Below, piece after piece: positions 6,587 to 51,219 of a stretch of 56,649 nt of DNA. The notes under the pieces are model-generated. The model was not told the origin of the DNA and made no database searches. It worked only from the letters and a program-made list of their open reading frames with translations. The stretch is from Diploschistes diacapsis (lineage: Eukaryota). A program made the translations under genes and the position numbers. The stretch spans positions 1 to 56,649 of the forward strand of contig JALAIB010000004.1 in assembly GCA_023645945.1 (NCBI GenBank), in the 5' to 3' direction. Each line of letters begins with the position of its first letter. The first letter of the stretch is position 1.

Positions 6587-6804
6587 GTCGAAGTTTCAGC
6601 TGCGGCCTTAGAAGCCGAGACGGAGAAAAAGGCGTGGTTGATGGACTATATCATCCAAGCTTCTTGGGAAGCCTGGCCGAGGGCTCTGGGATTGTCGAAA
6701 TGCAAGCTTGTGCCGAACCGAAGTCGAATCTTCAGCGAATCTCCGCAGCTTGAGAGGAATGAGATGTCAGATATTATGGGATTCTTGCAAAGGGTTTGTG
6801 AATG

Positions 6805-15102: not shown

Positions 15103-15639
15103 AGTCGCAGGAGACGGTTCACTTCAAGTACCTTGTCCTCAAGTCAAGGTAAAGTCAAGGGAATGGTAAAAGTAATAAGTACTCAGAAAGAACAACGGCA
15201 AGCTGGCCTCTTGAAAGGATTTGCCTACCAAGGTTAGGGCGGGGCGGAAAAACAACAACCGGTAACCAACGTTTGGAGGCATTGGAACTCTGTTGCACAT
15301 ATCTATATATCTACCCATACTCCTATACTCGAATGATATACAATAGCAAAGCTGTGGAGTGATGATACATAATACAAGCACACAGCAATATACATCGGTG
15401 TATGTTTTTGAAACCCACTGCCTAAATATGTCCCAACAGGAGCTTAGAGACCCCCAGCCATGTCTTTTAGCCGTAAACTATCGAATCCCTAAGTAAAAGG
15501 GGCCAGGCAGAACAAGGTTTGCTACGTGTTCTGAATATGTGGTTCCTCAATTTCTTTCTTTGTAACGCCTTCAATTGTACAAAACATCAAAGAATCAAGC
15601 ACCCTGGAGCCTTGCCCACAAGCAACAGCTCCCTCGGTC

Positions 15640-18600: not shown

Positions 18601-21600
18601 CATAGTCCTTAGCTCAGGCTCTGGGCTTTCGAACGAAGGAAGCCCAGACGGACTATGTCCGTCATCCAGGAGATTTGGGGTGTCCCCACCGTCGCTAATG
18701 TTGCGTTGGACTTGGTCGAGAGAGCAGACCTTTTTGGTCCTCAACGTAGACTCATGATTTGTCACAGGGCTTCCTTTGCGCTTTGAACTACGCTCCTTGC
18801 TAGATTCGACGTGCCGTGGATTTAATAGCCCGAAGACTGCCAGGCTCTCGTTCGAATGACGTTCACTAAGATTACCCCCAAGCCAAGCTATGTTGGGATT
18901 GTTATTATAAACAGGCTGATTGTTCACATCCCCTGCAGACAAGAACTCGGTATCCATAAGTGCAGACGCTGATACTGGAGAAGAGCTCAATGAATGATGC
19001 TTATGCTCTTCTATTATGTTCGAATGATCGACGCTGAACCATGGTAGGCTTACCATATTTTGCAATCTAAAGATGGCAACACGACACTTGCGTGGCCGGC
19101 CTCTGGCACCGCTCAACCTTAGAGAAGTGACTGGACCTAGGAAAAAACCTGCACAAGGTCTGCTGATCAGAGCAGATTGCTCCTCATAAGTCAGACACTG
19201 TGAATGTATGAGTGATGCAGATTTGCTTCCATTGCGAGTGCACTGTGATGCAGATTCTTGGGGTGAATGGGGACTTTTCGCCTTCTTGGTGTGCATTGTC
19301 TTCCGTATCCTATTTCCTCCTACCCCGGCCCTACTATTTCGCTTTTCTCGAACGGCAGGCAGTTCATGTAACTCTGACTTTAAGAGCCAGGTGGCGTTTC
19401 TTAGATCGTGCGCGGCAATGGATGGTAAATATGCCAATGCAGGATGCTGCGTCGGATTCTTTAATGCGCATGTGGTCTCACTGATGTGTTCTTCAAACTT
19501 CATTGGTATCCCATGGGCTAGACAGGATGGTAGATATTCTGAGCACCCTTGGCCGTTCTGATGACCGATCATGCTCCCGTGGAAAGAAGACTTTGCCAGA
19601 CTTTGGTTATTTGACTGAGCGCGCAGGAGAACAGTATGTGCTGCCGAGGAAGGAAGATTATACAGAGCATGCAATAGCGGTGGTCTTTTAAAGTACACCT
19701 TTCGAAGATCCCTTCTTGTTTTCTGCGAGAAGTATTCTTCGGAAGGTATTGCATATTCCGGGAGAACTTCCCTCATGGCTTGAACCTCGGAAACTCCAGC
19801 TTCAACCCCAGCCTCAATTTCTGGCGTGGCTTTCAAGCATTGGTGATCCCAACCTTTTGTTTGGGAAGTCTCGATCGAATGCAGCTCCTTTTCAGTAAGA
19901 GGGAGTCCATTGGCAGGAGCACCGATTTTAGGATGTTTTCGGGGCCTTCCACGTGCTTTCGGCAACTTGTTTAGCTCTTGCCCCTGCGAAAATTCGGCAG
20001 CTTTCCTTTTCGAACCTTTACGTACTGCTGGCTGTTCCAAACCCACATCGGCCGCCGGCTTTTCTTGACATTTTCTTGAAGGCGCAATGCCCCGGATAAT
20101 GTCATCTGCGATGGAAGAGTCCACCGACGGAGCCTTTGCGCTAACACGAACGCCTTGGTTTCGAACAACCTCTACGCATTGGGTAAGAGTGGCATTGTTC
20201 TTGTGTCCTTGAAAACGAGAGTCGTGGAGATTTGTGAAACCGTTGTCGTCAAGACTAACATTTGATGTCAATTCCGGCAGTGTCTCAACCGCATCCCAGG
20301 CGACTTCGCCTCTTTTAACCTTCGATTCGAAAGCTTGATATGTGTAGTGGACGTAAAAGCCGGTTTTCCCGATTTGGGCGGCATCTCGGATAATGGCCAA
20401 ATGCCTCACGTGGATGGGTTGTGAAACTTGCCAAAAGTTAACCAGCCGACTGATCGCCTGTTCCAGTGGACGGCCAAAGAAAGCACCGACTGTACATCTT
20501 CGGATACCCTACAACAATAAGTTGCTATTTAACTTGAGGTCTTTAGACTTACCTGGAGAGAAAGACCGTTAGAGCCACCTAGCTTCAGGACGCCGTGAAC
20601 CATGTGTACCAACAAACGATCAGGGTTCCATGATAAGAATGACGTTGAAAGGCCACTCTGCGGAAGAGGATTCAAATGGGCAATCTGAGCTTCATCCTGC
20701 AGCAAAATGTCAGTCCCTGCCCGGTTGGACAGCGCAGTATCGTTGAATTTCTCCCAGTCATTTCGGGTATCGGCATCAATCTCATAGCTCTGTTCCTGGC
20801 CGAAAAATACCTCCCAGTCCACTGATGTGGGCTCCCTGATGAGCTTAACGCATCGGCGTAGCGAGTCGGAGTCCACCGGCTTTGATCGGGCTCTCACACG
20901 TTGGAGGATCTTGAAGTCTTCGAATCTCCTTACCGCTTCCGCCATGAGTCTAGACAGCCTTCCATCGCGAAAAATTGCCTGTAGAAAGCCGTCAGTTCGG
21001 GCAATTTATAGCCGGTACAAGACTCATACTAATTGCTTTTTCAGATCATCCCATATGAGCATGTTCTCATCCTTGAGAATATCAAGTGCCCTGCGAATCA
21101 AGGTTTCATGGGCTAGAAATTTGCTGTGACCAAAAGGTTTAACAGAATCGGCTGGTAGATCTTTCGCTTGATTCTCTGATGGGTTTATTGCACCAGAGGA
21201 CTCAAGATTTTGAACGGGCTTGGCAAACTTACTCAACACCAAAAAGCTCGTACGTTTCGAGTCAGTAAGAATAGGGAGCTTCTGAATGTAACCCCTGTCT
21301 GAAAGTCTTTGGGTCCTCGTTGGTACCGATCTTTTGTCTTGTCCAGTTAACCTTACAAGATCTGGCTGGAGAATTCCACGCTCTCTGTGTGCAGCAATGA
21401 CCGTGAGGCAAACGAAGTCCAGTCGAGGTACTTTTTCGAAATCCTGTGCATGGCCAGCAGTGGCGAGCCAAATGTGCTCTTCAGATGCATGGACCTTTAA
21501 CGGTTCCCGAGATTGTGAGCTCAAGACTTCTAGATCTGGTGGTGGATCACCACGTGTTTCTGCCAGGCGATTCGCATTATAAGCTTCAACTTCCGCCAGG

Positions 21601-22055
21601 CTCATGAAGTTGCCTAATTTCTGTTTTCCAACGCTGATACCAAAGTGTCCAGTCAGCCAAGTCCAAACTTTTTCCTGAAAGCGCCGATCAACTTTCTGCT
21701 TTGCTTGTCGCTCAACAGTGACTCCTCCAGTTTGTATACAGTCATGGCTGCGCTCATTGTAATAACGGTCAACGTGTCTTAGAACGTCGGCCGGGTGAAT
21801 TCCTACAACTCACGATGTTAGATTGAAGATGTTAGATTATACCCAGTATCAGCTGCAACTAAAACATTGTCTCCGTACATGAAGCAGAGAGGAGCGCTCA
21901 GGATTCTATTGGGTGGATGCTAACTCGGCGTAGTCGTAGAAGAATCTGGGGAATGACATCTCTAAAGCAACGAATTTTGAAAAGGACTTACCTTCTGAGC
22001 CAGCTAACGCAATCTCCTCCACCAAGCATTTCATCAGCCCATCTATACTAGCCAT
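15640..22055 (-). CDS. TFC3: TFIIIC B-block binding subunit (Tfc3/Sfc3, tau138); 4 exons
   Basis: N-terminus 'MASIDGLMKCLVEEIALAGSEG'; B-block domain 'IAAHRERGILQPDLVRLTGQDKRSVPTRTQRLSDRGYIQK'; AT-hooks RGRPRK; C-terminal 'PVWIDING...WWW'. Introns 21803-21991, 20979-21029, 20509-20552. Confidence 0.88.
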
Positions 22056-25122: not shown

Positions 25123-28100
25123 TCACCAGGCTCCGAGATCTGTATCAAACCTTACAAGCTCCTTCCCAGCATCCTCTACATCTTTCTTCGCCTTCATCCT
25201 CATGTAAAAGATAGGGCAATCCTTTGAGCTGCAGATGACCTCGTTGTGCATGCTCCCTTGACACCGCTGACACTGGGTCCAAAGCCGACTGAATTTGACT
25301 TCCAAATCCGAAACCTCATGAAGGGTTTTATGGTACAATTCACCAATCCGAGGCCGACAGTTCTCACAAACCGCTCCCGTCGCTTCCTCCTTGCTGACAA
25401 GAGGCTTCTTACAGCCCATGCACGTTTGAGTTTTCTTGGCGAACTTCATCAAGCCACCAAGTGTTGGTGCAGCTACTGAGATACTTCTTGTGTGTTCGCC
25501 AGTGAGAAGCTGACCAGCCTTTTTCTTTCCAAGGATAGGCTCGAAGATGCGGCTGAGGGGTTTGGCAAGCTGGTTGTCGAGGTAGTATCGAGTGTCAATG
25601 GGTATGTTATTTTCCAGAACGAAGATTGGGTCCTCAGACTTCTCGTAGGCTTTTGCCCCTGCCGCACCCTTGACGATGATATATGCTACACGGTCTCCCA
25701 AACCTGGCGCTGAGCCAGCGTCGCGCTTTTTCATGCGGGCTGCAAGCTCGACGTGAGCTTGCTTCCCTTTGTACTCATCCTTTTTCGCAGCCACCGGAGC
25801 ATCCTCGTCTTCATCTTCATCTTTTTCTTTGGAGTTCTTCGTGAGCGCTTTCGTAATCACCAGTTTGGAAAGGTCAATTTTGTTCTGGAGAAGATCCGAG
25901 ATTGTCTCCTTCACGTAGCTAAACGGTGTCAGTTAGCAACGTAATTGCTACACCTCAAGTTTACTCACTCCTGAGCGCCCGGCACGTCACGGTCTATGAG
26001 AATTTTGCGTAGCACAGTCTCAATTACTGTCTGTACCATCCGACAATTGTCTCGTCGGACGGTCTCGATTCCTTTGCTATCCATCTTATCGTACTTGCTG
26101 GGGTTTGTCCAATACAGGCCAGCATATCTCTTTTTGTTGATAAGCAGATATGGGAAATACACCTTCTCAAATTCGAGTTTGATAGGCTTGATGAACTTTG
26201 CCGAAACATATGATCCAGCCTCTTCGCCCAGCTTCATCGTCGCCTCGAGCTCAGTAGTGCCGAATCGAACCATGACGGAGTCTGTGTCTCCGTAGATGAC
26301 CTCAGCGTCGTGAGAATATCCATTAGAAACAGTAAATCTTGCCTCCACTTCGTTCTTGGTTTTCTCGATCATCTGTCGTCCGTAGGAAGTGGTACTACTT
26401 GCAATAGCCAAGCATGGTAACTTGCCTACAGTTGCTCCCGTGATACCGTAAACACTATTCGCGCTTATCTTGAGAGCAAGCTGTCTTCCATTCAGCACGG
26501 CTTTCTTGAAGGGGTCTGTTTCGATGGCCAGATCCTTTCTTGCCCGCTTTCTTGCCGAGAGCAATTCTTCTAGGATCTGAGTCAGGAGACCTTTGCGGAC
26601 CTTGGCCGTGCAGAAAAGATCGTTATGGGGCGTCTCAATGTAGTCTTCGTCCTTTACAAACCCAAACTGTTCTACTTGACTCCTCGTGAGCAAGGTGGTG
26701 TAGCAAAGATTGTGTGCTTGCATGATACTTGGGTAAAGAGAGGCGAAGTCAAGTGTGGCAACAGGAACATCGTAATAACCCTTCTTAGGCTCGATTACTG
26801 TAGCGCCCTCGTACGCCTTTTCGTCTCCCCCAGACTCGTTCGGCAAGTTGGGTATAACAAGGTTCTGCTGACGAGCCTTGCGAAAGAGCTGACTAAGGAA
26901 CTTAATTTGCTGGCCTTTCGCGAGAAGATAGTTGAACGGAACTCCAGTGACCCTCGCCATTTCGGTGTAGTTGACCAAACACATTAGCTTGTCCATCAAT
27001 CTCTGTGGAAGGTAAGCATCCTTAAGACAATAGACCGCAAGCCGACGACGTGATTCTGCAGTTCCTTCGTGCAATGCAGTGATCATTGTATGATGAACGT
27101 CCTCTTTCTGTTCCCCAAGAAAATGTGCAGAGACTGAGTTCAACGTGTAACTCCGCAGTTGGTAATCGCGCTGTACAAGTTGAAGAAGGTCCAACTGAAG
27201 GCGTCCATGGATGTTGGTTGCGTGCGTCTCCCTGTTACCCATCTGTTTGCTAGAAAACCTATCCTCTTTTGCTTCTGAGATTCGACCCTTCAAGCGAGAC
27301 CAGTATGGAAACTTAACACATTTTAAGTGCCTAGCTCGATCCAAAAGGTATCGTAGATCGAAATTGGCAATATTGTAACCAATAATGACATCTGGATCAA
27401 CTCTTTCAAGGAAGCCCTTCCAAGCCATCAATAGCTTCTCCTCTGCATCAAACTCTAGGACCTGCGTGTTGACTATCAAACTACACGTATCCAGGACAAA
27501 GACATTCCGAATGAAAGGCGTGGATTCCCCATAACGAGTGACAACATTGCCGATTTGGATTACGGGATCATGGGTAGGCTCGGGAAATATACCCTTTCGG
27601 CCCGCACATTCTATGTCGAAAGACATAATCCGGAGAGGTGCGATCTTGGCCCATTCTCCGTCGTTTCCATGAGCGACAATATCTTCGTAATGAACGTAGG
27701 CTTCGATTTGGCATGTGGACTGTCGGTCCCGCGCTGGTACAAGTTCATATTTCAAAGCCGGCACCTCAACCCACGACATTCCGGTAATACCAGTATCGAT
27801 CATGAAGCGCAGGACGTAATCGAGATTGTCAAAGGTCTTGATTCCTTTTTCGACACCCACCCAGAAGTTTTTGTAATTGAGTGGTTGCTTTTCAAAGATG
27901 AACCGAACCTTACTGATGTACTGCGGGTCTGTCACGGAGATTTTTAGGTATGGGCTTTTCTGATTACCCTGATACCCGAAGATATTCTCCCGTAGGACCA
28001 TCTGGATTGAGTGTATGGCCGGCTCGTGTACCGAGAACTTCTGCTCGAGGAGACGTTCAAGCCCTTTACAATCATCTTTGGTAAACGAAGCTGGTGCGGC

Positions 28101-28602
28101 AACATAGAGGTAGTGGAGGAAATTTGTCACGTGTACCAGCACCGAATTACCGCTCTGCGTCCGGAAGTTAGCACAAGCGTAATCAAGGTCATCGTCGCCT
28201 TACCTCTGTTACACCAAATAACTTCACGGCAGCCTTACCCCCTTGAACGGCCCCCTTCTCAGCCTCTATTTGCTGGAAACATAGCGAATTCCTCTTTTCG
28301 TCAAAGTCTTTCAAAGCTGGGCGATCCCATTGTTGGTCCTTCTCGGAGTTGTTCTGTTTGAGCTCGTTGATTTCTTGCGTCAACTTCTCAAGTACCTCTT
28401 CTTCAAAGTGTGACTTTGTTTGGCTTGAACCAAGAGGACCTCTTTGGCCCTTGAGACCTTTGAATCCGGTTGCTGGGGACGAGCCCAAATCCAATCTGCG
28501 TCGTTTTGCTGCGCTCGGTGACGGGAGAACAGTTGCGTTCCGATGCGCATTGGTTGAGTCTCCCAGAACCCTCTTCTGTGGGTGAAGTGCTGTGCCGGGC
28601 AT
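25123..28602 (-). CDS. POL3: DNA polymerase delta catalytic subunit; 3 exons
   Basis: Exonuclease 'SFDIEC'; polB motifs 'DFASLYPS', 'KISANSVYG', 'YGDTDS'; C-terminal CysA/CysB. Introns 28155-28203 and 25919-25968. Confidence 0.97.
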
Positions 28603-29940: not shown

Positions 29941-31877
29941 CTAAGCAAAAGAAGCGCTTGTCGGCAGAGCTTTGCTTGTTTCGGGAATGACAGCCATCGG
30001 CAACGTCAGGTTCGATGGGAGTAACTCCGGGACTTGAGTGAACAGTGGGTCGTTTATGGTTACGGCCCAGGGATCACCACCGCCATTCTCTAAATGGTAT
30101 AGATCGTTCGTCTCAGCTGATGGCGGTCTCTCCATCATTTTGCCCATTGCCATGACCTCGCGCGCAGCACCACGGATGCTTTGCAGCACAGAGCCAGCAA
30201 GAGCCCATGTCCCTTTGATTGACTTTAGGGAGCCCACGCTTAGCGCCAGCCTCTCACGAATAGCCGCCCTGTGATTCACATCATGGGCAAGCAGATAAGC
30301 GGAGAGATGGACCACGGCACTTAGTGTCAGCATGCACGTGAAGAGTGGGGTATGCTGAAGACTATCACCAGGATATGTGATTAGCTCTGCGATTTTGTCT
30401 GCTGCAGAGGTACACTTGACGGTGTGGACGCTGAACTTGGATGCCGGAGTTCCATAAATTCTCGATTCCAGACAGTTGTTGCTGTCTTGCACGTCTGTGA
30501 ATACGAGATCAGAGCGCGGACGATGCAAACAAATACTTGCCCTGTTGGTCTGTTAGAAGCTATCCTAATCTCCTTCATCTCGTCTGGGCTTACGCATTGG
30601 TCATCATGTGCGCCTGGAACATCATTTCATCAAGCTTTCCGTCCTTCCCTAACGGAGTCTGCTTTTGCTCTGGCAAGTGTAACTGCCAGTTGTTAATGGC
30701 GATGTCGATTGACGTTACGATATCCGAGCTTTCCGGGCAAAATGGTTGATTCAGGGCAAGAAGCCGGCCAATGGAACGAGCGGCAATCACTCTATAGGCA
30801 AAGGATGAGAATGAGGCATCGTCGTCGTCGAAGAAAGTATATTGGTCGTATTCCATGATTGTCCTTGACGCACCGGGCTAAAATAGGTTAGTCACCCTCC
30901 GATAAGGTCTGCTATTTCACGGAAGCTTACCCGGCAGGCACGGTATTCTTTCTCCTCCCAAGGAAGCTCGATATCCGCCTCCACCGCGTTCATACGGGAA
31001 TAAATATCGTGTCGAAACGCAGCCAACATTAGCTCATTAACATAAAGCTCCCACCATACCCTGCGCCACATCTCCTGAATTACGGCCTCGCCACCGCTGT
31101 TGAGCTGAGCGAAGGATGCCCTATGCATGCCAAGCTGAAGCGCCAGATCTGTTGCTTGTGTGAAGGTTGTTAGCGCCAAGCCATTCTGATCTTGAGCCCT
31201 ATACATAATACCAAGCAAGGTCAGAGCTTGCACCAGGTAGGCATCACGTTTGGTGTCCTTCGCGTAAAGGCACGCCTGAAGATGGTGTAGATATCTTGGG
31301 TCAGCTCGAGCCTTGGCGGAGTACTGCGCACCAACATAGTCCACAACGGCTTCAACAAGCGCAGGCAATGCATTGGCGGATATGCGAGGAAGGAAAGCTT
31401 TGGGAAGCATGATAGGATGCGCATCATGGAAGTAGTAATAGTAAAGCTCCCTCAGCTTCTCTCGCCCGAAGGAAGCAGAATTCGAGTCTAAGAATACCGA
31501 CGGTGGAACCCTAGCGGAAGGCCGGGGGTCAAAGAACCCCTACGAGAGAATGTCAATTATTGATGGCATGCACATCGGCTATGGCAAGAAGAAGAATAAT
31601 GGTTTCATACCTGAGCGGGATACTCCTCACTGCTTGTGGTGCTGGAGGTGTTATAGGATTCTGGTGTTTTGTCCGCCGACTCACCGGACCGTTGTCTCTT
31701 ACGTGTAGGTCTGTGTCCTCTTCGAGATTGAACGTAAAAGCAATTTTGCTTGCTGTCGAGGCACCTCGAGCACGAAGGGCTGCCACCGTCACATTTTAGA
31801 TGTCGTTCGCGGCAGACAACGCATGCGAGGGGCACGGCGGCGACGTCGCCATTCTCTTTGCCTAGCTTTGTGGACAT
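29941..31877 (-). CDS. Zn(II)2Cys6 transcription factor with fungal-specific TF middle domain; multi-exon
   Basis: 'ACVVCRERHLKCDGGSPSCSRCLDSKQNCFY'; 'YYYFHDAHPIMLP', 'EMWRRVWWELY', 'DEMMFQAHM'. Introns near 31540-31610, 30880-30930, 30540-30593. Confidence 0.9.
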
Positions 31878-35800: not shown

Positions 35801-36427
35801 CCCTTGGAGTCATTCATGGACGGTCAACCATGGAGAGCGAGCAGGTTTGCAGCCACACTCAGAAGACAGCTGTCGCGCAAGCACTTGGGCCTGCTACCGG
35901 TTCAGGACTTTGAGAAGCCGGACAGAAATTTCGAGCCCCTGGCCATTCCCAACGCTTACGATCTAGGCTCCGCTGAGGATCATCTGGTTGCGGACCCTGT
36001 TGCCGATAACTTTCTGAACTTCTGGAACGGCAGAGCCCGGCAGAATACAGAGGCTTTCAGGAAAGTCTTCCATCCAGTTCCAGATGACAGTGTGAAGACA
36101 TGGGCCGAATACAGTACGTTCTTCGAGCGATACTTCACTCATGCCGAAGAAGTAGCGGAAGGCAAAGGTGGGAAAGGTTGCGCAAAGTACCGTTGGGGCC
36201 ACGTTGTGGCGGAGAATTTTTCACCAGGCGAGCAAGGTGTCCGGGAGGTCAAAGATATTCTGAGTACTATACATGGCACCTTGGTGAGTCACAAGCATTG
36301 CTCAAATCCGAGTAAGCTTACAAGCCCGGGATATTAGGTTGAAATGCCTCTCCTGTTCTTGATCAAGGAGGACATTGCGAAGGAGGGACTCAGCTTAAAT
36401 GCTTTGACCGAAGAGGTGTACACTTGA
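32847..36427 (+). CDS. Phospholipase D (two HKD motifs; no PX/PH region seen), many introns
   Basis: '[33 protein letters not shown]', HKD1 '[12 protein letters not shown]', '[10 protein letters not shown]', HKD2 '[27 protein letters not shown]', C-terminus '[14 protein letters not shown]'. Confidence 0.92.
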
Positions 36428-37514
36428 GGTTCGGAGTTTCTAGTACAAAGATAAGACGGGGAAGCGATGGGAAAGCCAAGTAAGGTTGAGCTGCCTATTG
36501 ATGGGTTCTAGCCAGGCTGCAGGTAGGTACTACTTGGCAGGTAGTGTATGCGGTGGTTTAGCGTGGTGTTAGAAAAGGTACCTGCGGTAGGTAAGTTTGC
36601 AGTGGACGACCGAAATGTTGATGTGGACGACGAAATGTTGATGTTGATCGGATATCCATACGTTTTGGGCTCTTGAACTTGAAGACTTGTAAGGGAACAA
36701 CAATACTAAGGGCTCGCTTAGCAAAAAGAAATCCGAAAACGAACTAGTATCCGAGTCCCGATCTGCACTAATACCACAGGTATTTACTTTCTCCAACTTC
36801 AATTACTCTCCTTCGCATTGTCTATCTCTCTTCAGCTCTAATTTTGTATCGAGCTGATAACGGACTTGAAAGCACATACTGTCGGTTGATAGGAAATGTA
36901 CTCAAGGAAGTAGGAGGAGAATGCAAGCTTGCAGGCATTGTCGTCTATGGCCCACCATGTTTTGCATCACAGTACATGTGCAACAGAAGGCTGAGTATAC
37001 ATCTTGTCCCTGAACCAGCATCACTGAGTGTGAGGTGTCGAGGATCCTTCTTTGCTTGATCTTTGATGTCTGATCATCTATGCCTTTCCTGTCTTAGGTC
37101 GTCACTCCTTCAGCCTCACCCTGTTGAATTCATTGTTTTTTTTTTCACATTTGCAGATACGAATCGGTGCTCTAGACCATTCCGATGCCTAAGTCTTCGT
37201 GTTCTTTATGCAAAAGAACAATACCAAGAAGTGTTAATATTGTCGAGTCACAGACGATAATATCAAGCCTTGAGCTTTCGACCTTTTTCAAAAGTTACAA
37301 AGGGCTCTTGCAACTGCTATCACTGCTAACGAGACGCCGCTGCTTGCTCACTTCAAAGTATTTCAGTCGTTGGGTCTGCTTCTTCTCATCTCCATACCAC
37401 AATTCTCCTCCATCAAGGACTCAAAGCCAGAAGCCAAGATAGACGACCTTTTACAAGCAAGACCTCAATACACCTCCCAAACCCTCTTACCGCTTTTGCC
37501 CTCAGATCTTCCGG

Positions 37515-37578
37515 GTAAGCCGTGAAGCCCTCACCCTGGCTGGCACAGAACACTAGCTAATCAATCACCCTCATTTAG
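37515..37578 (+). other. 5'-UTR intron of the candidate pheromone gene
   Basis: GTAAGC donor, GCTAAT branch site, TTTAG acceptor 29 nt before the ATG at 37608. Confidence 0.65.
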
Positions 37579-37607
37579 CATTTACGAGTGCCTCACAAGC
37601 ATCAAGA

Positions 37608-37754
37608 ATGAAACCCTTCACCATCAAGCCCTTCACCACGAAGACAGAGGCCGCCCAAGGAGGCATGGTTAATCCTCATGGCACGAATCCCGGCACCGAG
37701 ACGACAGACGGCCCCAACAGCCAGCATGTCGGCTTCGTTTGCGTTGTCATGTAG
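37608..37754 (+). CDS. Candidate a-factor-class (CaaX lipopeptide) mating pheromone precursor, 48 aa
   Basis: MKPFTIKPFTTKTEAAQGGMVNPHGTNPGTETTDGPNSQHVGFVCVVM*. Ends in CaaX (CVVM); no signal peptide; hydrophilic pro-region; isolated in a ~2 kb intergenic gap; upstream intron. Confidence 0.75.
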   Translation: MKPFTIKPFTTKTEAAQGGMVNPHGTNPGTETTDGPNSQHVGFVCVVM

Positions 37755-38493
37755 AAGCCTCCCAAGGGTTTGAACCTGCACGATCGACCATCCGGGAGTG
37801 ATGCTTCTATCGCGTCTTTCAGGTGTCAGTTGCGGGTGAAGCTTGGACAGGCAGGGGCCTTTTAATTTCAACTACGTGCTATATACGCAACCAAAGTCGA
37901 TCTTTTGCATCTTCTGTCACATTTTGTTGTATCTAGCATGGTATTACACTAGAACTCTGGGTGCGATGTGGGCACCGACTTGCCGACCCTTTCCTTCGTT
38001 TATGGTGTCGGTTCTCTACATTCCTGATACAAAGTTGCTTGAGAGACTCGGTGTTGCTGTACTACATTCGAGAGCTTTCTGCACATCTTAGGAGCATCGA
38101 GACTGTTATAGGGGGTAGCGGAGTTATATGGATTTTCCTTCTATACGGAGAAGGAGCATTATTGGAGACATACAAGACGCATTCATGTATTCGCTTGGTT
38201 ATGGTATATGGGGTTAGTGATTCGGATATACAAGAATGTGACTTCTTAATCTACTCATGTGACGATCGCCCCTTCTATGCTATGGTGAAGTCATACCCAC
38301 AGTCTCTGGGCGATGGGCATGGGCCGCGAGATGACTCTCATTGTAGTGGAGCTCAAAGCTGTATGGCGGTGCCAAGGGGCAAAGATACCTTCGTGAACCA
38401 TGCGGGTTTGTGCTCGACGATCAAGGTGCATGAGAAGAATGTGAAATACAAAAATAGTGTAATGTGAGTGCTTCATCATATGCCTTCCATCTC

Positions 38494-40465
38494 CTAATCA
38501 GATGGACCGGCATTTGCTACATCCAAACTCCTTAGCCTAGCAAGTACGTCATCCAGTGCGTGTAATTCAGCCCCAAAGTCTTTCTCGATATCGGAACTCT
38601 GAGAAGGCCCCGTTCCTATTGATTTCTCCACCAAAGCAGCCAAGACGGCTACAAAGTCCTTGTCCACATTAAACTCCACAGCCAGTCTGTGGACCTCAAG
38701 ACGCTTGTACAGGAGAGGCGACGAACACAGCAAATAGTAAAGGTTCAGCGCCGCCAACCAGAAGGGGAAGTTCGTGGCCATGTCCTGCATCGAGGACGTG
38801 TCCGGCGTGGCGAACAGCCAGGGCGCGCAGGCCCTTAAAGCGGATGGCTGTGCAAATGCATTGGAGCTGTCGCCCGTGCTATTCGTTATTCTGAGGCCCT
38901 CGGTGCCCTGAAAGCTCGAATTGTTGAGAGGCACGTCAAAGGCCATTAGGATCTCGTCTTTGAGCCAGCCCACGGCGGTGACTTTGAGGTTTGCATATGG
39001 GCAATGCTCAAGCGTGTCTTGTATGAAGTCCAGCCGCGCCTCGGAGGAAGGGTTCCCGCGTAGTACGGCTGACGCAAAGGCATGGGCTTGGAACCTCATG
39101 CTCGGCAGAGGCATGTTCGCGGAGGTAAAGGATATCCTCTGTAGATAACTGCTGAACTCTGCTCTCGTCTCTGCTTCTGCAACGCCATCGGTTGCCTCGA
39201 GTGCGGCCCAGCCGAGGATCAGGGTAGCATCAACGGTTTGGACCATGGAAGCAACGCCTTCTTCGATGTCGAGGAATCGGCTTGCAAGCTCCTCGTGCTG
39301 TGGGAATAAAGATAGATTGATCGAGGCTGGGCGGTCGTTTAACAAAGCAGTTGCCACTCTCGCTGCTACACAATATAGGGCTCCGATCCGAGACAATGGG
39401 AGCTCCTCGAGGGACACGACAGACCCATTGGCACCGAGCTCATCATCCGGCTCGGTGATGCATTCTAAAAGGTCCTGCCATGGCATGGTAAGATCACTAT
39501 CTGCTGTACTCTGTGAAGGGTCAGCGCTGCCAGGTTACAGGAATAAGGTTACTTGCCAGTATCTGGCTGATACTCGCGTCTCGCCTCTCCAGATCAGCTT
39601 CCTTTTGGAAGCGCGACCGGTAGGTTTCTTGTCGAGGCAGAATCCTTTCGGGATACCGCTTCTCGAAAAAGCGGTCGGACCATGCGAATTGCGAGGTTTC
39701 GCCAGCAGGATTCAGAGAGTGGATGTAGATTTCGGCCACATGAGTGACGAAGGATCTCAAGATACGCTTCTGAAGGCCTTCCTCTTCCTTTCCCGGAGCG
39801 GCTGTCTGGGCTTCAGGGTCTGGGGCTGAGATCCTGTCACTTACCCTCGGTATCGCCTGCTGGCTTTTCCGAGGCGGGAGATGTGGTCGACTGGAGCCAG
39901 ACAAACTTTTGAGCAGCATCAGAACTGCACCGATAGACTCGGCGGTATGCGCTACAGCCTTGTAGGCAGGAACGACAGCCTGTACCGAAGTCATGAGAAA
40001 TCGACTCGGGTATTGTGTCTTGATTCGAGGATGCAAGATACACAGCATGTGCAGCAGAGACTGGAACTGAAGCGCCAGCAGAGCGGACCTGGGTTTTGCC
40101 TCTTGTTCTAATGCGCCCTGCTCGGAGTCGATGCCTTTCCCTTCTCCGCCTTCCTCGTCGTCATCGTCAGCTACATGCCTGCGACCAATTTCATAGAGGA
40201 GTTCGGCGACCTTCAGCACCGTTTCTCGGGGGTTTCCAAGGAACGCTACATCTTGCAGGCATTGCTCCGATTCGGGCAACAACGGCAGGAGCAAGCCCAC
40301 AAGATCCCAGCCGATGTTGGTGGTCAGGGTTTCATCTTGGAGTAAAGTATGTAGCACGGGAAGCTGTTCCTTATTCAGGTTATATTCTACTATGGTCAAG
40401 TATGTCAAATAATCGGTTTCCGGCGGCAGCGCCTTCACGAGTGGACTTTCTTCAGCTTCTGCCAT
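38494..40465 (-). CDS. Ybp1/DUF1760 (YAP-binding/Alf4/glomulin family) protein; 2 exons
   Basis: 'PLVKALPPETDYLTYLTIVEYNL..LTTNIGWDL..LGNPRE..LHPRIKTQYPSRFL'; C-terminal 'RLDFIQDTLEHCPYANLKVTAVGWLKDEI'. Intron ~39511-39556. Confidence 0.8.
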
Positions 40466-41338
40466 GGCAGTATGTTTTGTTAATCAATACCACTCGTGAT
40501 ATGGTAACCGCCTTGCGGTTAATGCATGCGCCCCCATTTCCAACTCATTCTGGCGGTACGTCATGGCTTACCGCTATCATACTCACTCTGCTCGGGCTTA
40601 AGAAAGATAACTTGGATGCAGTAGTTAGACTACTTGTTCACGGCCACCAGAGGGTCACCTTTTAGTTTTTACACAGAGTCTGCATTCGACTGTTAAGGAG
40701 TATTGAATTTGACAAACTGTACATGGATATCATTGTTGCATTAACATCCATGTTTCCGCCACTGATAGGCTACTTACCTAAAAGTGATGTTGCGTGCGAA
40801 GGCTTGAATACGAAAAGCCCTTGCTCATCGCACTTTGTGTATCTACTCCTAGCACCATTCATGTGCCATCGCTCAAACTGTTTGACGAACCAGAGCTGAA
40901 CATGAAAACACAGTGCGATAGCTGAGTGTATCTCCCTTGGCTGCCTCGGCGACTAATCCAGCGATGACGTCTCTTAGAAAGTATCGAGCAGAAGGTAGAC
41001 TACTGCTTTTGAGACGAGCGGTGCGACGCAATGTCAAAGTTCGTAGTGTGGATTCGATACACGTTGTGGTCCCAGCTGGGGATGCGGTTCCTGCCAACTT
41101 TGATATACATAGAGATCCATAGCAAGACACCGAATGTATCCTTAAAGGAAGGGCGACCACCTCGAGTCCAGAGGGACACCCTGCAGTACTGTATGGAAAG
41201 ATTAGCTATGGGTAGCCGGTGGCCTCCGTGGAGTCCAGAGGAAGTACCAGCATATCTAGTTGTAGAATATATTCAGATCTACCATTCCTTGGTTCAAACT
41301 CTGCCGCCTAATAGCCATGCACAAGCACTTTTGAGGCT

Positions 41339-42317
41339 CTATTCTTTTTTCCAATCCTCGAATTCCTCGTCAAGATGCCGCTTTAACTCCTGGAACCGAT
41401 TTCGGAAATTCTTGCCGCATCGCCAACACTTCAGGTCGTTTCGCAAGTACCCACCGTGATCGGGTCGCCTCCTTACATCGTCTTTTTTAAGTGGAAATTC
41501 ATGTAGGGTGACCAAGAATGGAGTAGCAAAGCTGTTATAGTGCTTCCTATGCCTCATAGTTTCTGAAGTCCTGTCTCGCGAGAGAACGTGTACGTGCAGA
41601 TGGTTCATTGAAGGCCCAGAGTGTACTCCGGCGATTACTTCGTCTTCCCAGTGCCTGCCTTCAGGCAGGCTTTCCAAGTTTGGGAGCGCCCTGCTGGGGC
41701 CTTCTTGTGCACCCTCCATGGCTTTCAAGCGTGCCTGCTCTTTATGACTAAACTTGCCAAACCTTCGCCTCAGCTCGGCCGCCACCAGTTTCTTCACCTT
41801 TTCAACCTCTTCAAGAGTCGCTTTCAAGAGTGCCGAGTCCTGGCCAAAGGCATCAAAGGGGTGTAGCTTTGTAAGAGAATGCCGAGGAATGACAAGAACG
41901 TGGATCGAAGATTTGGGAAATAGGTCATGAATGGCAACGAACTGGTCATTATAGTACAGCACGCGGGATGATGGAAATGTCTCTGGAGAGGAAATGTATG
42001 CACCTAAACCATCACGGCCTAGGAAGGTAAAGCCCGCTGTGGAGGACAGAGAAGGGGCGGCCTGATTAGTTGCTATCGACATGGTCTGCACCAGCCGCTT
42101 CTTTTTTGGTGACATCAATTCGATAACTGATATTGATTAGAAGCGTGCTTTACCTCAACTCATCAGAATGTGCTATACATGCGTCGCGTTTCTGAAGCGA
42201 AGGGCCAGGCACGGTAGTACTGTAGATTTCCTCGCCGACATCTTGGCTGCCCCGAACAGCATCATCAGCATCATTGAAATCATGAGCCACGTCTACCTTG
42301 CGTAATTTGCCAGCCAT
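41339..42317 (-). CDS. HNT3: Aprataxin-like HIT protein with C2HE zinc finger; 2 exons
   Basis: Splicing gives 'KRDAFIELMSPKK'; 'RDGLGAYI', 'IHDLFPKSSIHVLVIPR', HIT motif 'PSMNHLHVHVLSRD', 'KHYNSFATPF', 'CWRCG...LKRHLDEE'. Confidence 0.9.
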
Positions 42318-42906: not shown

Positions 42907-45900
42907 ATGCCTGACCGAGGGAAACGCCAAGGTGGCAGCACTGGGCCAGCAAAAGGCTCCAAGCATGACCAGACTGCTTCCATAAGTGTAAGCCAGACCG
43001 CAAAGGAGAAGAAAGCAAATGCAAAGCTCGCACCAAATTCCACAGCTAATGAGCCTGTCGGGGCTGAAGTCGTCCAAAAGCCAGACACACGAACCTTGAT
43101 TGCTGGCGCATCCTGGACAGGAAAGCTCCCTGTTAATTTGTTGTCTGAGCATTGCCAGAAGCAGAGGTGGTTAAAGCCAGAATATTCCATGGTATTTCTT
43201 GAACAAGGTAAGTTTTCGCCACACATGCTAATATCGATTCAAGAAAAAATTAAAGGATGGCTTTGTGTCCTCGGTTACACTGAGAGCGGCGAATCCAAAG
43301 ACACAAGAGACTACTACGTTACCACCTTTTAATCTACCACCCTCGCACCGACATCTTGGTTCCCGTGCAACCGCGGTCGAGGCCCGTCATATCGCTGCAA
43401 CATGGGCATTGTTTCGAGTTTCAAGCATGAAAAATATCCACGTGATGCTTCCCCCCGACTTTCGGGATCTTTGGAAAAGCGAGTTCCAAGTGATTAAGAA
43501 AGCAGACGTTCAGAATGGCCATGGCTGGCTGTACGAAGCAGATCCATTCATCGCTTGGGAGGAAAACGAAAAAGTGGAGGCCCTGAAGCGCAAGAAGAGA
43601 GACGAGGTCATCACCCAAAAGGCCATGGAGGCTAAGATACAGGCACTTCCTCGTCTTTCGGCTCGGGACCCGAAGCGAAGCGATCTCGGTGCGAGGTCCA
43701 AGAGCGCAAAGATTGAAATGGGCAAATTGATCCGTTCTGATGTCGAAGCACTTCTCCGAAAATATATAAGGTGGAACCTCTACTGTATATCAATAGCTTC
43801 TGACCAAAGCGTAACGATTGTGAACGAACTCAGCAATATGGGATTTCGAGAGTCTCACGTTCGAGAGGCTGTTGAGTATTGTAAGGACCGCGAAGAAGTC
43901 CTGGAATGGCTTTTAATACACGTACCAGAGGATGACCTCCCGGTGTGGGCAATGCCAGAAAACTACAGCGCTGGTGTAAGTCTGGTGAGCGGAAATATAG
44001 CAAAGGAAGCCAAAGTCGCACGACTTTCGCAAGCCGGTTACTCTATAGAACTTTGCCAGGCATTACTCGAAAAGCATGGAGGCAGTGAACTAGACACATC
44101 CGAGGCACTACAGCATATCCTCTGCGAGGGTCTATCGAAGCCTGCAGAAGCTTCTTGCTTAACCTTGTCAGGAGAGCATGGAGAAGACATATGGACACAA
44201 GAACTGGATACGCTGGAATCAATCTTTGGAGACCGTTTTTCAAAAATAGACGCGCTAGGTTGCAGCCTCAAGCTTCACTTGGCTGGTCTGGAATGCTCTG
44301 TTCAATTTAGGAGATCGAGAGCTTACCCCCTCGACGCACCACTACTTCGCTTGATTGGGAACGGAGTTCCAGCATACATTAAGCTGAGCATTTATCGACA
44401 AGCAATCCGCCAAGCATATCAAGCTTTCCTTGGACAACCTATGGTCTACCTTTTGGTAGATTGGCTCGAAATCGAGACCCCGAGGATAGTAGCAGAGCCC
44501 GGGAAACTGCGTGATATAGCAACGGCAGCGATACCAATGGTCGCAGCTCATCCACAAATCTCGAATACGAAAAGACTGCCTGCACGAGATATCAAGTCTC
44601 GTGGTAGACGAGCGGCCGGTTCGGCGAAGAGTCTCTCAATATTACGGCAGTGGTGCGATAGACAAAACCAGAGGCCTCAGGTCCAGATGATGGCAGCCCG
44701 TCAAACTTTACCTGCATGGGGCAGTAAAGAGAAAATCTTAAAAGCTGTGGACGAGAATCAGGTCACGATAATAGGTGGTCCAACTGGCTCCGGCAAGTCA
44801 ACCCAGACCGTTCAGTTCATCCTCGACGATATGATACAAAATGAGCTTGGGGAGTACTGTAGCATTATATGTACACAGCCGCGAAGAATATCTGCGCTGG
44901 GCTTGGCAGAGAGAGTTGCTGAAGAACGTTGCGTTACTGTTGGGGAAGAAGTAGGCTACACGATCCGGGGAGAGTCTCGACAGACCCCTGGGAAAACAAG
45001 CATCACGTTTTGCACCACCGGCGTTTTGTTGAGAAAGCTACAGGTGTCTAGCTTTACAGCAGAAGACCTTGCGGTTTCGCTAGAGGGTGTATCCCACGTG
45101 GTTGTCGATGAGGTTCATGAGAGAAGCTTAGACACGGATTTTCTGCTCATCCTTTTACGAGATATTTTACCCTCGCGTAAGGATCTGAAGCTTATCTTAA
45201 TGTCCGCAACACTTGATGCGGTCGAGTTTGAGACGTACTTCCAGTCCATTAGCACCGTTGGCAAAGTGGAAGTGGAGGGGCGGACCTTTCCAGTCACGGA
45301 CTACTATCTAGACGATGCCATAAAGATGTCTCAGTTTAACGACTCAGTTGGCCATGGCGACCTGGACGATAGAGAGGTGGGCAGAGCCATAAAGAGCGTC
45401 GGCACGCGTATTAATTATGAGCTCATTGCTGCTGTCGTACATAGCATACATCATAATTTGGGGAAACGAGAGGGATCAATCTTGATATTTCTTCCTGGCG
45501 TTGCTGAGATCAACCGAACCATCGATGCTCTGCGTGGAATGCATGACATCCATCCGTTGCCGCTTCATGCCTCATTGGCTCCCGCAGAACAGCGACGGGT
45601 CTTCTTCAAAGCACCCAACGGCCAAAGAAAGGTGGTCGCTGCCACCAACGTTGCGGAGACTTCAATAACCATTCCGGATTGTGTAGCCGTTGTCGATACT
45701 GGTCACGTTAAAGAGACGACTTTCGATACAGAGCGGAGTATGGTCAAGTTAGAGGAAGTCTGGGCGTCACAGGCCTCCTGCAAGCAAAGACGGGGCAGAG
45801 CCGGTAGAGTTGCAGCTGGCGAGTGCTTTAAGCTGTACACGAGGAATGCGGAAGCAAAGATGCCCTTGCGACCAGAGCCAGAGATCAGACGCGTTCCCTT

Positions 45901-47035
45901 GGAGCAGCTTTGTTTGTCGATCAGGGCCATGGGCATAACAGATGTAAATGGGTTCTTAGCAAAAGCTCTGACCAAACCCGAACGCACCTCTGTCGAAGGA
46001 GCTATGACTTTGTTGTGCAAGATCGGCGCCTTGGATTCGGAGGGTAAACAGCTGACAGCTCTGGGTCGCCATTTGGCGAGCATACCGTCTGATCTCCGCT
46101 GCGGCAAGCTGATGATCTACGGTGCCTTATTTGGCTGTATGGAAGCAACTCTTACAATTGCTTCGATTCTAACGATCCGGTCTCCATTCCTGTCGCCTCA
46201 GACAAAGAGGGATGAGAGCAAAGCGGTTAGGACATCCTTTGCCGAAGGCCATGGTGACCTTATTGCCGATTTAGAGGCATACAAACAGTGGACTGCACGC
46301 CGTCAGAGCAATAACAGTACCCGGGACATTCGGGTATGGTGCGATCAAAGCTTTCTTTCCCATCAAACGCTCTCAGAAATCTCCACAACTCGCATCCAGT
46401 ATCTGTCCTCCCTCAAGGAAGCCGGCTTCATACCTGCGGACTATTACTCCTACTCTGGTTCAGCCTCCAATGCCAGGTACCCATCGATCAATATAAATGG
46501 ATCAAACCTTGCTCTCCTTCGCGCCCTAATTGCAGGCGCTTTCAACCCTCAAATCGCCCGCATCGCTTTTCCAGACAAAAAATTTGCTGCCTCGTCCTCC
46601 GGCGCGGTCGAGCTGGACCCGGAGGCACGAACAATCAAATACTTTACCGAAGACGCAGGCCGCGTGTTTGTACATCCGAGCTCGACGCTTTTCGAAGCCC
46701 AGGGCTTCCCTGGTCATTCAATGTTCATGGCATACTTTAGCCGGATGGCGACATCGAAGGTCTTCATCCGCAATCTGACGCCTTTTAATTCGTATTCTCT
46801 GCTCATGTTCGCTGGGAGCGTACGCCTGGATACCATGGGCAAGGGGCTCATCGTGGACGAGTGGCTGAAGTTTAGGAGCTGGGCGCGGATAGGTGCATTG
46901 GTCGGTAGGCTACGGACCATGCTTGACGAGATACTAGACGAGAGAATGGAGAACCCCGGCAATTTGAGTGACAAGGGGCAAGAAGTTCTTGCTGTCGTTA
47001 GGCGGCTGATTGAGTTTGATGGGTTGGATAGGTGA
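42907..47035 (+). CDS. DEAH-box RNA helicase with UBA/RWD-like region (DHX57/YLR419W/Ucp12-like); 2 exons
   Basis: 'SWTGKLPVNLLSEHCQKQRW'; motifs GPTGSGKST, TQPRRISA, DEVH, MSAT, TNVAETSITI, QRRGRAGR; HA2/OB C-terminus. Intron 43192-43243. Confidence 0.92.
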
Positions 47036-49410: not shown

Positions 49411-51219
49411 ATGGTTTCCCTACCTCGCAGCTTAACAAGGAGAACAACTCAACTTATTTCCCAAAGACATTCTTTAAAAGCAAGCTTCCAAGTAAAACAC
49501 CGAATCGGTCTAACCGCCCTACGAAACTTACATGAAAGTCCTCTTTCTAATCGTTCTCCTTTCTGTACAATGGCTGCTCTAAAGAGTGCAGCGCCTTCCC
49601 CTGGAGGGAAGCGAGAATACGATCCAGAGATCAAGGATATGGCGAACTATGTGCATAACTATACAGTTGATTCCGATCTCGCGGTAAGTGGGTTCCGCAC
49701 TGATTCAGCATTTATCTCACTCAGAACGTAGCTTGATACTGCTCGCTACGTACTTCTGGACACCATTGGTTGTGGGCTTGAAGCCTTGAGATTTAAGGAA
49801 TGCACCAAGCTTCTTGGGCCTACTGTACCGGGTACAATTGTTCCCCACGGCACTCGAGTTCCTGGTACACCATATGAGCTAGATCCTGTAAACGGAGCAT
49901 TCAATATCGGTGCTATGATACGATGGCTTGATTACAATGATTGCTGGCTGGCTGCTGAGTGGGGCCACCCTTCCGATAATCTTGGTGGTATTCTCGCCGT
50001 TGCAGACTGGATTTCTAGAACAAATCGGGCTGGAGGAAAGGTGGGTACTGGCGTTGTTCTCAAGATCAAGGACGTTCTAGAAGCCCTGATCAAAGCCCAC
50101 GAAATTCAAGGCTGTCTGGCCCTAGAGAATTCCTTCAACAAAGTTGGCCTTGACCACGTCGTGCTGGTCAAGGTCGCTACCACCGCCGTAGTATCCAAGA
50201 TGCTGGGATTATCAGAGAGACAGACTGCCGATGCCATCACCCAAGCCTGGGAAGACGGCCAAAGCTTGAGGACCTACAGGCACTCTCCCAACACCATGTC
50301 GAGAAAGTCGTGGGCAGCTGGCGATGCGTGTCAAAGGGCAGTGAATCTAGTACTTAAAGTGCAGCGAGGCGAACAAGGCATACCGACTGTCCTGTCTGCG
50401 CCTATCTGGGGCTTTTACGACGTTCTCTTCAAAGGGAACAAATTCCAATTCCAGAGGCCTTACGGGACCTATGTGATGGAAAATATCCTCTTCAAAGTTT
50501 CCTATCCTGGTAAATCCACCTTTGCACCTCTCCAGCGCTTCTGCTCATATCTGCGTAGCGGAGTTTCACTCACAAACGTCAATCGAGGCTGCCAAACGCA
50601 TATACGCACAACTGAAAGAGAGGGGCAAGTCTGCAGAGAATATCAAAGATGTTACAATTCGAACCCACGAAGCCTGCATCCGGATCATAGACAAGCAGTT
50701 CAAACCTCTGGATAATTTTGCCGATCGTGATCATTGTATTCAGGTGAGAGACTCCATTGAAGTTGGGTGATCAATGACTAAGGAATCGGACAGTACATGA
50801 CCGCTGTGATGCTCGTTTTCAACCGTCTGGAGGCAACTGACTACAGCGATGGCTCCGAAGCAGCTACTTCCGAGCTGGTCGAGTCCTTGCGCAAACGCAT
50901 CAAGTGTGTCGAGGATGAACAGTTTACCAAGGATTACCATAATCCAGATATGCGGACAATCCCTAATGCTCTCACCGTCAATCTTGATGATGGCACTGTC
51001 CTGGAGGAAGTGGTTGTGAAGGCACCTCTTGGCCACAAGCTCAGGCGAGAGGAAGCGAAGCCCGAGATCCTCGAAAAGTATCGCCGTCATCTGACGCCGC
51101 ACTTCAAGCCGCACGAGGTGGAGGAGCTCATCGCTCTAGGGACTGACGCCAAAGCCTTGGAGCAGACGAGCGTCGATCAGTACATGGACATGTATGTAAA
51201 GAAAACTATGGACTGGTAG
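49411..51219 (+). CDS. PDH1: 2-methylcitrate dehydratase (PrpD/MmgE family) with likely mitochondrial presequence; 4 exons
   Basis: '[23 protein letters not shown]', '[18 protein letters not shown]', 'FKVSYPAEFHSQT', '[11 protein letters not shown]'. Introns ~49684-49730, 50510-50558, 50744-50793. Alternative start at 49570. Confidence 0.95.

Follow-up and report, generated by a model that had tools for sequence, protein, structure and literature searches.

A putative a-factor-like lipopeptide pheromone precursor gene downstream of PLD in a lichen-forming Lecanoromycete

Introduction

Could a 48-codon open reading frame (ORF) standing alone between two larger genes of a lichen-forming fungus encode a mating pheromone? 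The question is raised by positions 37608..37754 on the plus strand of contig JALAIB010000004.1 of Diploschistes diacapsis, which was analyzed as one stretch of 56,649 nucleotides (the window). The ORF lies between a PLD gene and a YBP-type gene and ends in Cys-Val-Val-Met, a CaaX box, and an original prediction made from the sequence read it as a hidden precursor of an a-factor-like lipopeptide pheromone. Genes of the a-type pheromones are so short and variable that neither annotation nor homology search picks them up. Because culturing and crossing lichen-forming fungi is difficult, what is known of their mating biology comes, to our knowledge, almost entirely from MAT loci. Our literature search, which covered publications outside subscription journals, found no report of an a-type pheromone gene for Lecanoromycetes or lichens, and those of its matches that touch on pheromones concern receptors or alpha-type precursors. 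The analysis described here supports the predicted pheromone precursor through the discovery of syntenic CaaX genes in two other lineages. We consider the ORF to be probably the Lecanoromycete counterpart of the ascomycete a-type (a-factor-like lipopeptide) pheromone precursor genes, with a probability of roughly 0.7.

Results

Features and coding signal of the small ORF

Translation of 37608..37754 (+), with its TAG stop codon included, yields MKPFTIKPFTTKTEAAQGGMVNPHGTNPGTETTDGPNSQHVGFVCVVM, in agreement with the original description of a 48-aa product. The N-terminus, MKPFTIKPFTTKTEAAQ, is polar and by inspection has no hydrophobic core, and no signal peptide is therefore seen. Threonine accounts for 10 of the 48 residues, and a Gly-Phe pair, not Gly-Tyr, is found two residues ahead of the Cys. 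The CaaX box, C45-V-V-M, occupies 37740..37751 (+), with Cys45 as the presumed farnesylation site. A second in-frame ATG (M20; 37665..37667, +), also present where it had been predicted, would yield a 29-aa precursor. The ORF opens with a tandem duplication of a 15-nt unit (37608..37637, +; repeat family D2, 87% identity) that is translated as MKPFT-IKPFT. Its two units read ATGAAACCCTTCACC and ATCAAGCCCTTCACC, the start codon region having been copied in frame.

Codon composition points to a coding sequence. The guanine plus cytosine (GC) fraction of the ORF by codon position is 0.52/0.48/0.73, with cytosine alone at 0.50 of third positions, compared with third-position values of 0.50 for GC and 0.26 for cytosine in the Pfam-supported genes of the window, and the third-position GC of 0.73 falls in the top 1.7% among 302 short ORFs. 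The codon log-likelihood of the ORF, 0.155 per codon, corresponds to the 58th percentile of true coding windows of 48 codons and ranks 14th among the same 302 short ORFs, where some of those ranked higher resemble real exons. Taken alone, the CaaX end is at chance level: C-x-x-x-stop ends number 137 over the six frames of the window, and a strict C-[AVILM]-[AVILM]-X end is carried by 4 of 602 ATG-initiated ORFs of 15-100 aa. The combination G[YFW]..CaaX-stop occurs once in the six frames of the window, at the small ORF.

A syntenic CaaX gene in two related lineages

Related loci were obtained by aligning the C-terminal part of the YBP protein with its homologues and scanning metagenome contigs, which gave 42 loci at 31-44% identity. 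PLD is present in 12 of them, and in all 12 a two-exon CaaX gene is found downstream of PLD, on the PLD strand. The same gene is seen in two more loci, one of which holds just the PLD end at its edge (L022) while the stretch of the other stops short of PLD (L025). The 14 gene-bearing loci represent two lineages, the L002 group with 3 loci and the L008 group with 11. In the L002 group PLD is upstream, on the strand of YBP; nine loci of the L008 group share the convergent PLD..YBP layout of the window across a gap of ~2.5 kb, and these nine constitute one genus-level group with gaps that are 88-100% alike. A plain scan of the syntenic gaps for ATG-initiated ORFs returned no CaaX ORF on the PLD strand, a false negative that arose because an intron splits the gene; the gene was defined by gap alignment, a terminal-exon scan and splice modelling. 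Its exons lie at 2182-2251 and 2348-2379 in locus L002 and at 7798-7732 and 7630-7599 on the minus strand of locus L028, and the coding intron, 66-102 nt long and in phase 1, uses GTAAGT as donor and ACTAAC or GCTAAC as branch.

The products of these genes are 32-33 aa long, begin with MPSTT.. in the L002 group or with MQPAT../MQPTA.. in the L008 group, have a middle part rich in Thr, Pro and Ala, and in both lineages end in ..GYGCTVM followed by the stop codon. The alignment score between the peptides of the two groups was reached by none of 5000 shuffles. In the 11-locus group, changed columns amount to 3 of 99 in the exons and 16 of 102 in the intron, compared with 92 of 258 in the upstream 200 nt and 66 of 225 in the downstream 200 nt; the small genes of the relatives are under purifying selection. 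As a side observation, a block of ~80 nt situated ~60-140 nt past the stop codon in the L008-group loci (alignment columns 2021-2100) is near-invariant amid variable sequence and may be an element of the 3' untranslated region (UTR).

The window ORF occupies the same position as the gene of the relatives, downstream of PLD and on the PLD strand, and in the window it precedes the 3' end of YBP. Its end, Q-H-V-G-F-V-C-V-V-M, compares with Q-[PT]-G-Y-G-C-T-V-M in the relatives, and the residues common to all three lineages are the Gln and Gly-aromatic-x-Cys. The original prediction had proposed inspecting the PLD-YBP interval of related genomes for a short syntenic ORF with a conserved Asn ahead of the CaaX box. 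The syntenic CaaX gene was recovered at every PLD-bearing locus, but the conserved Asn was not. The predicted cleavage after N37, which would have released a mature SQHVGFVC peptide, is thereby not supported, as the relatives have ..R-G-Q-[PT]-G-Y-G-C and no Asn at this place. In the best global alignment the initiator Met of the L002 group falls opposite M20 of the window peptide (37665), which makes the 29-aa form a real possibility; this form is also nearer to the size of the relatives' products than the 48-aa form.

Leader, 5' UTR intron and shared upstream elements

Upstream of the ORF the window carries a putative 5' UTR intron of 64 nt (37515..37578, +) with a GTAAGCC donor, a GCTAAT branch and a TTTAG acceptor, and nowhere else in the gap, on either strand, is a strict intron pattern matched. 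In the spliced sequence no in-frame ATG precedes the start codon as far back as the nearest stop, at 37271; both of these sequence features had been correctly predicted. A leader of 29 nt (37579..37607, +) with A at -3 separates the intron from the start codon. The preceding ATG on the plus strand is at 37208, leaving an ATG-free run of 397 nt before the ORF. Intervals of at least 400 nt from one ATG to the next number 7 among 1917 in the window, and the interval before the ORF belongs to these top 7. Its part at 37211..37514 (+), which includes a CT-rich tract at ~37378-37413, presumably contains the transcription start and a non-coding first exon, and we infer from the sequence that transcription begins within this ATG-free region. 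The relatives resemble the window in these respects: the ATG-free leader is 477 nt long in the L002 group and 209-250 nt at the four loci examined in the L008 group, and the L002 group has a 5' UTR intron of the form GTAAGCC..GCTAAT..CAG at 2081-2152, with the donor and branch of the window. If its second acceptor is used, this intron ends 29 nt before the ATG, which is also the distance in the window. In the L008 group a GTAAGT.. intron-like stretch is located farther upstream.

A repeated sequence element shared by all three lineages provides further evidence for the gene. In the window its distal copy, AACAACAATACTAAG, lies at 36696..36710 (+), 912 nt before the ATG, and its proximal copy, GAACAATACCAAG, at 37216..37228 (+), 390 nt before the ATG, with the element cores at 36700 and 37218; the proximal copy is a candidate HMG-box-type site. 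In all three lineages the 15-mer AACAACAATACTAAG precedes the small gene on the same strand, and in a control of 200 shuffles not even a common 12-mer was obtained. Within the window the element 13-mer has one exact match and one match with a single mismatch, compared with 0.04 expected, and the exact 13-mer is present in 9 of the 42 loci, every one of them gene-bearing. The core ACAATACYAA has 52 matches on both strands of the window and the 42 loci, 51 of which fall between PLD and the small gene in the window or the 14 gene-bearing loci, the exception being at 14072 of the window, and zero matches were found in the 28 loci without the small gene. The distance from the proximal element to the ATG is 390 nt in the window, 344-362 nt in the L002 group and 519-596 nt in the L008 group (element positions 1820-1848 in L002 and 8317-8347, minus strand, in L028), and 10 of the 11 L008-group loci have one more ACAATACYAA copy ~1400 nt before the ATG, near the PLD end.

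An HMG-like WWCAAAG motif comes after the element in each of the 14 related loci (+24 to +56) and also in the window, where TACAAAG (37296..37302, +) lies at +78. WWCAAAG occurs 56 times in the window compared with 39.9 in shuffles, and about 5 times in the 1.6 kb around the ORF. On its own it is no local signal, and only its pairing with the element is notable. The AACAAT and CAAAG cores are reminiscent of HMG-box sites, and a mating-type or Ste11-like factor may act on the module of ACAATACYAAG and CAAAG. Farther upstream, a T-run at 37136-37146 varies in length, with 3- and 4-base deletions in two contigs of close relatives (X2 and X4).

Evidence against the assignment and rival explanations

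Several observations weigh against the assignment of the ORF as an a-type pheromone precursor gene. No real homologue of the window peptide was found by sequence search: Pfam gave no family for the 48-aa peptide, a word-based homologue search among proteins of 26-84 aa gave no candidate, and tblastn of the peptide together with tblastx and blastn of the gap against the related loci recovered the PLD last exon only. A phmmer search of 1.84 billion representatives returned two matches to long repeat proteins, which were rejected as artefacts of weak repeats of ~25 bits summing up. The intron pattern at 37515-37578, taken alone, is weak and unspecific evidence, as strict matches over the window number 19 compared with 20.4 in shuffles (no enrichment), and those of at most 70 nt number 8 compared with 4.5, a count that 22 of 200 shuffles reach. 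These points, together with the frequency of CaaX ends among short ORFs (the 4 in 602 noted above), speak for a chance ORF whose CaaX end is accidental, whether it lies in intergenic sequence or in an unrelated non-coding transcript. Such an explanation leaves unaccounted for the fact that two other lineages carry a CaaX gene with matching position and strand, as well as the near-exclusive shared element, the ATG-free leader and the codon bias, and we regard it as very improbable. It is because of the synteny, the near-exclusive upstream element, the ATG-free leader and the codon bias that the ORF stands above chance.

Another set of observations concerns the divergence of the window gene from the genes of its relatives. 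Beyond the last 10 residues the similarity of the peptides is weak, and the scores of the window peptide against those of the relatives were reached by 39 and 236 of 5000 shuffles, weakly above chance. The window peptide is 15-16 residues longer than those of the relatives and has Phe in place of Tyr, and the window ORF is without the coding intron that both other lineages have. Directly before the codons for Q-H-V-G-F-V-C, ..CCCCAACAG resembles a former acceptor, which suggests that a former coding intron is now read through in the window ORF. An in-frame coding intron within the ORF was also considered and rejected, as the one plausible acceptor (..CAACAG, 37720) would shift the frame and remove the CaaX box (worked by hand). 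The comparison covers two other lineages, since in the 28 other loci the fetched stretch has no PLD and is hence uninformative on the gene; the terminal-exon scan over these 28 gave a single stray match, in L029. Even among the gene-bearing loci there are irregularities, namely a GTG that replaces the ATG of the gene in L034 (~7798, -) and a GC rather than GT donor of the coding intron in L008 (~7726, -), which could be alleles, errors or signs of a disabled copy.

Contigs of four close relatives (X1-X4), compared over 36700-38500, add a further point. One is identical to the window (X1), one does not cover the ORF (X4), and the other two (X2 and X3) are too little diverged to reveal constraint. 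In X2 (~2.5% diverged) the ORF is intact with synonymous changes at 37622 and 37721 and a change at 37630 that gives P8L; these 3 changes in the 147-nt ORF compare with 17 in the 686-nt contig, and conservation is not visibly above that of the flanks. The window copy might be a decaying remnant of the family, its intron lost or read through, its start duplicated and its peptide drifted, with an ORF that survives by chance and produces no working pheromone. The exon structure, length and most residues, which differ from those of both other lineages, the 15-nt tandem duplication at the start and the X2 comparison would all fit this explanation. Decay would nevertheless have to be reconciled with a frame that is intact from the ATG to the CVVM and stop, with the CaaX box and the Gly-aromatic motif kept, with the strong codon bias (third-position GC 0.73), and with the retention of the ATG-free leader, the intron and both copies of the upstream element. 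The changes in X2 are two synonymous ones and one in the disposable N-terminal part, and in the PMC10569646 supplements, as far as they were available, pheromone peptides differ widely between lineages. Loss of function in the window copy therefore appears distinctly improbable to us, if a little less so than a chance origin of the ORF.

A CaaX peptide, moreover, is not necessarily a mate attractant. The ORF could be a real gene for a prenylated small peptide of the same family that serves hyphal adhesion, fruit-body building or other signalling and has no mating-type-specific expression. The available text of PMC10569646 states that the Leotiomycete a-factor candidate and the alpha-factor are expressed regardless of mating type, and it also mentions that N. 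crassa mfa-1 and the Fusarium pheromone pathway have roles outside mating. The same text, in contrast, describes the Sordariomycete precursors as mating-type-dependent in expression. The relatives share with these precursors the MPST start, the Gly-Tyr motif and a C[TV]VM end, and the HMG-like cores of the upstream element would fit control by the mating-type locus. A non-mating role thus seems unlikely, and among the rival explanations it is the one that we take most seriously; an a-type pheromone precursor gene remains our preferred reading of the locus.

Flanking genes and remainder of the window

The PLD gene (+) runs on beyond its apparent stop at 36337 by way of a 51-nt intron (36287-36337) into a conserved last exon of 29 codons at 36338..36427 (+), which places the true gene end at 36427. 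This exon shares 83-87% identity over 30 aa with the PLD ends of 13 loci (tblastx). The YBP gene (Kinetochor_Ybp2; 38494..40483, -) matches Pfam PF08568 with E = 4.7e-67 and 2.6e-28 in two ORFs. The two genes are convergent, with the small ORF between them and a stop-to-stop gap of 2066 bp, so that the original placement of the ORF alone in a gap of ~2 kb stands after the PLD end was moved. A gap of 2066 bp is long for convergent fungal genes. Neither a tRNA nor a second CaaX candidate was found in it, and no Rfam family reached the gathering score; when Rfam matches with E up to 1 were admitted, one weak lncRNA match appeared at 38259-38365, far under threshold. The named relatives of the YBP protein are Lecanoromycetes (Trapelia, Xanthoria, Rusavskia, Flavoplaca and Seirophora) at 30-36% identity, and three other proteins reach 54-56%; to judge from these protein sequences, the window is DNA of a lichen-forming Lecanoromycete. 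In keeping with this origin, the complete stretch occurs in a lichen metagenome run that may be its source, and parts of it occur in two runs from close relatives; none of the 6 runs listed was of RNA, which has no bearing on expression.

The remaining genes of the window are ordinary fungal housekeeping genes according to a Pfam scan of 21 long ORFs. On the minus strand are RRP5 (1763-6595), a ubiquitin-conjugating enzyme (14020-15123), a large DUF6581 protein (15640-20508), a TFIIIC B-block subunit (21024-21809), the DNA polymerase delta catalytic subunit (25123-28199), a fungal transcription factor (30892-31539) and an aprataxin-like HIT protein (41339-42136), and on the plus strand are a WD40 protein (7681-9246), a DHX29-like helicase (43232-47035) and MmgE/PrpD (49732-50715). 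Families of Ste3-class receptors, CaaX-processing enzymes and Ste6-type exporters were not found among these 21 long ORFs in the general Pfam scan.

Discussion

Proposed mechanism and significance

Taken together, the findings lead us to favor, at somewhat better than even odds, a more detailed interpretation in which the window locus and its two related lineages represent a Lecanoromycete a-type pheromone gene that is genuinely homologous to the a-factor genes of Sordariomycetes and yeast, is linked to PLD and has its own repeated element, maybe a mating-type HMG site, with a precursor that was rebuilt in the window lineage by loss or read-through of the intron and by duplication of five residues at the start. 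A rebuilt mature peptide (..GFVC compared with ..GYGC) would be as expected for species-specific mate recognition. If this interpretation is true, the family would be traceable across the Pezizomycotina by synteny and exon structure.

In the proposed mechanism, transcription would start at ~37230-37450, downstream of the two ACAATACYAAG copies and the HMG-like CAAAG site, a module that may tie expression to mating type, and the 64-nt 5' UTR intron would be spliced out. Translation from 37608 (48 aa), or possibly from 37665 (29 aa), would produce a cytosolic precursor without a signal peptide. Cys45 of the CVVM box is proposed to be farnesylated because X is Met, a residue taken to direct farnesylation in the available text of PMC3068285. 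The VVM tripeptide would then be cut off by an Rce1- or Ste24-type protease, the new C-terminal Cys would be carboxymethylated by a Ste14-type enzyme, and the Thr/Pro-rich N-terminal part would be trimmed. The resulting short farnesylated peptide, ..GFVC-OMe, would be exported by a Ste6-type ABC transporter and sensed by the Ste3-class receptor of the partner. What the sequences show is the ORF, the context in which it lies, its synteny with CaaX genes conserved in the relatives and the purifying selection acting on the latter; the biochemistry, the function in mating and the ends of the mature peptide in this scheme are extrapolated from the known family.

Most likely the window gene adds a further member to the family of a-factor-like lipopeptide pheromones, from a fungal class for which our search found no report. 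It would be useful to research on fungal mating and on lichens, but it introduces no new principle. A credible pheromone gene could provide an expression marker for thalli and apothecia, as well as a peptide to synthesize and assay on a Ste3 receptor in a yeast reporter. The locus also suggests a recipe for gene finding, namely a spliced M.P.T...G[YF].C.VM gene downstream of PLD that is accompanied by ACAATACYAAG elements, and it offers ACAATACYAAG as a candidate regulatory element for a mating-type HMG protein.

Comparison with known systems

The window peptide was compared by eye with the published Sordariomycete and Leotiomycete precursors. The Leotiomycete putative a-factor (the B. cinerea BCIN_13g03330 family; PMC10569646) is described in the available text of that paper as the first a-factor found in the Pezizomycotina outside the Sordariomycetes, and its function is doubtful. 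Its members are 45-64 aa long, similar in length to the window peptide, and have a Ser/Thr-rich N-terminus, GY or GF and a C[TV]VM end, for which the window peptide offers candidate counterparts in its Thr residues, its GF and its CVVM; the gene is unannotated in most genomes (PMC10569646). All ~111 sequences of supplement S10, however, share a Cys-rich ..C.ECDG..CCCIP(IP)C.VM end, whereas the window peptide has one Cys. Membership of the window peptide in this family was rejected on account of the missing Cys-rich C-terminal block. Should the locus prove to be a true a-factor homologue as outlined above, the Cys-rich candidate of the Leotiomycetes would have to be regarded as a derived member, or else as no orthologue. 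As a separate observation made by eye, MVNPHGTNPG of the window (37665-37700) faintly resembles the conserved Leotiomycete LVNRNGPGS, a likeness that may be due to chance.

HPP1 of the Hypocreales, according to the available text of PMC3068285, is like the window peptide in its 48 aa, its CaaX box with Met and its long untranslated region. It has three (L/I)GC(T/S)VM copies and Kex2 sites, whereas the window peptide has one CaaX box and no internal copy. An assignment to the HPP1 hybrid type was rejected, as there is neither a repeat nor a KR or RR dibasic site. The genes of the relatives are likewise unlike both the Cys-rich Leotiomycete candidate and the three-repeat HPP1.

The a-factor of the Saccharomycotina (S. 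cerevisiae MFA1/MFA2) is a CaaX precursor with a removable N-terminal extension, and the same is assumed for the window peptide. The yeast route, as given in the available text of PMC2148179, comprises farnesylation, loss of aaX, methylation, cleavage at two N-terminal sites and export by Ste6. The mature part of the yeast a-factor has no sequence similarity to the window peptide, and the yeast cut after Asn21 has no conserved counterpart. The MQP.T-type start of the L008 group resembles that of the Candida glabrata a-factor, which starts with MQPT in the entry seen in supplement S2 of PMC10569646.

The Sordariomycete precursors (N. crassa mfa-1, S. macrospora ppg2, P. anserina, F. graminearum ppg2 and M. 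oryzae MF1-1) provide the remaining comparison. Their function has been shown genetically in some species. The precursors are 21-26 aa long compared with 48 aa for the window peptide, which starts with MKPFT and has GF-V-C in place of GY-C, and beyond the C-terminal end the two cannot be aligned. Their genes lie downstream of cyanate lyase, as far as the available text of PMC3068285 indicates, whereas the window gene lies downstream of PLD. Like the window peptide, they are tiny and without a signal peptide, and their N-terminal part rich in Thr, Ser and Pro and their Gly-aromatic motif a few residues before the Cys have putative counterparts in the Thr-rich window peptide and its Gly-Phe pair. 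In the entries seen in supplement S2 of PMC10569646, Sordariomycete a-type precursors start with MPST and end in ..GYCVVM or ..GYPLSCTVM; the CVVM of the window is identical to that of the N. crassa, S. macrospora, P. anserina and C. globosum entries, and the L002-group relatives share the MPST start. With this common start, the Gly-Tyr motif and the C[TV]VM end, the genes of the relatives are taken as probable homologues of the Sordariomycete and yeast a-type family.

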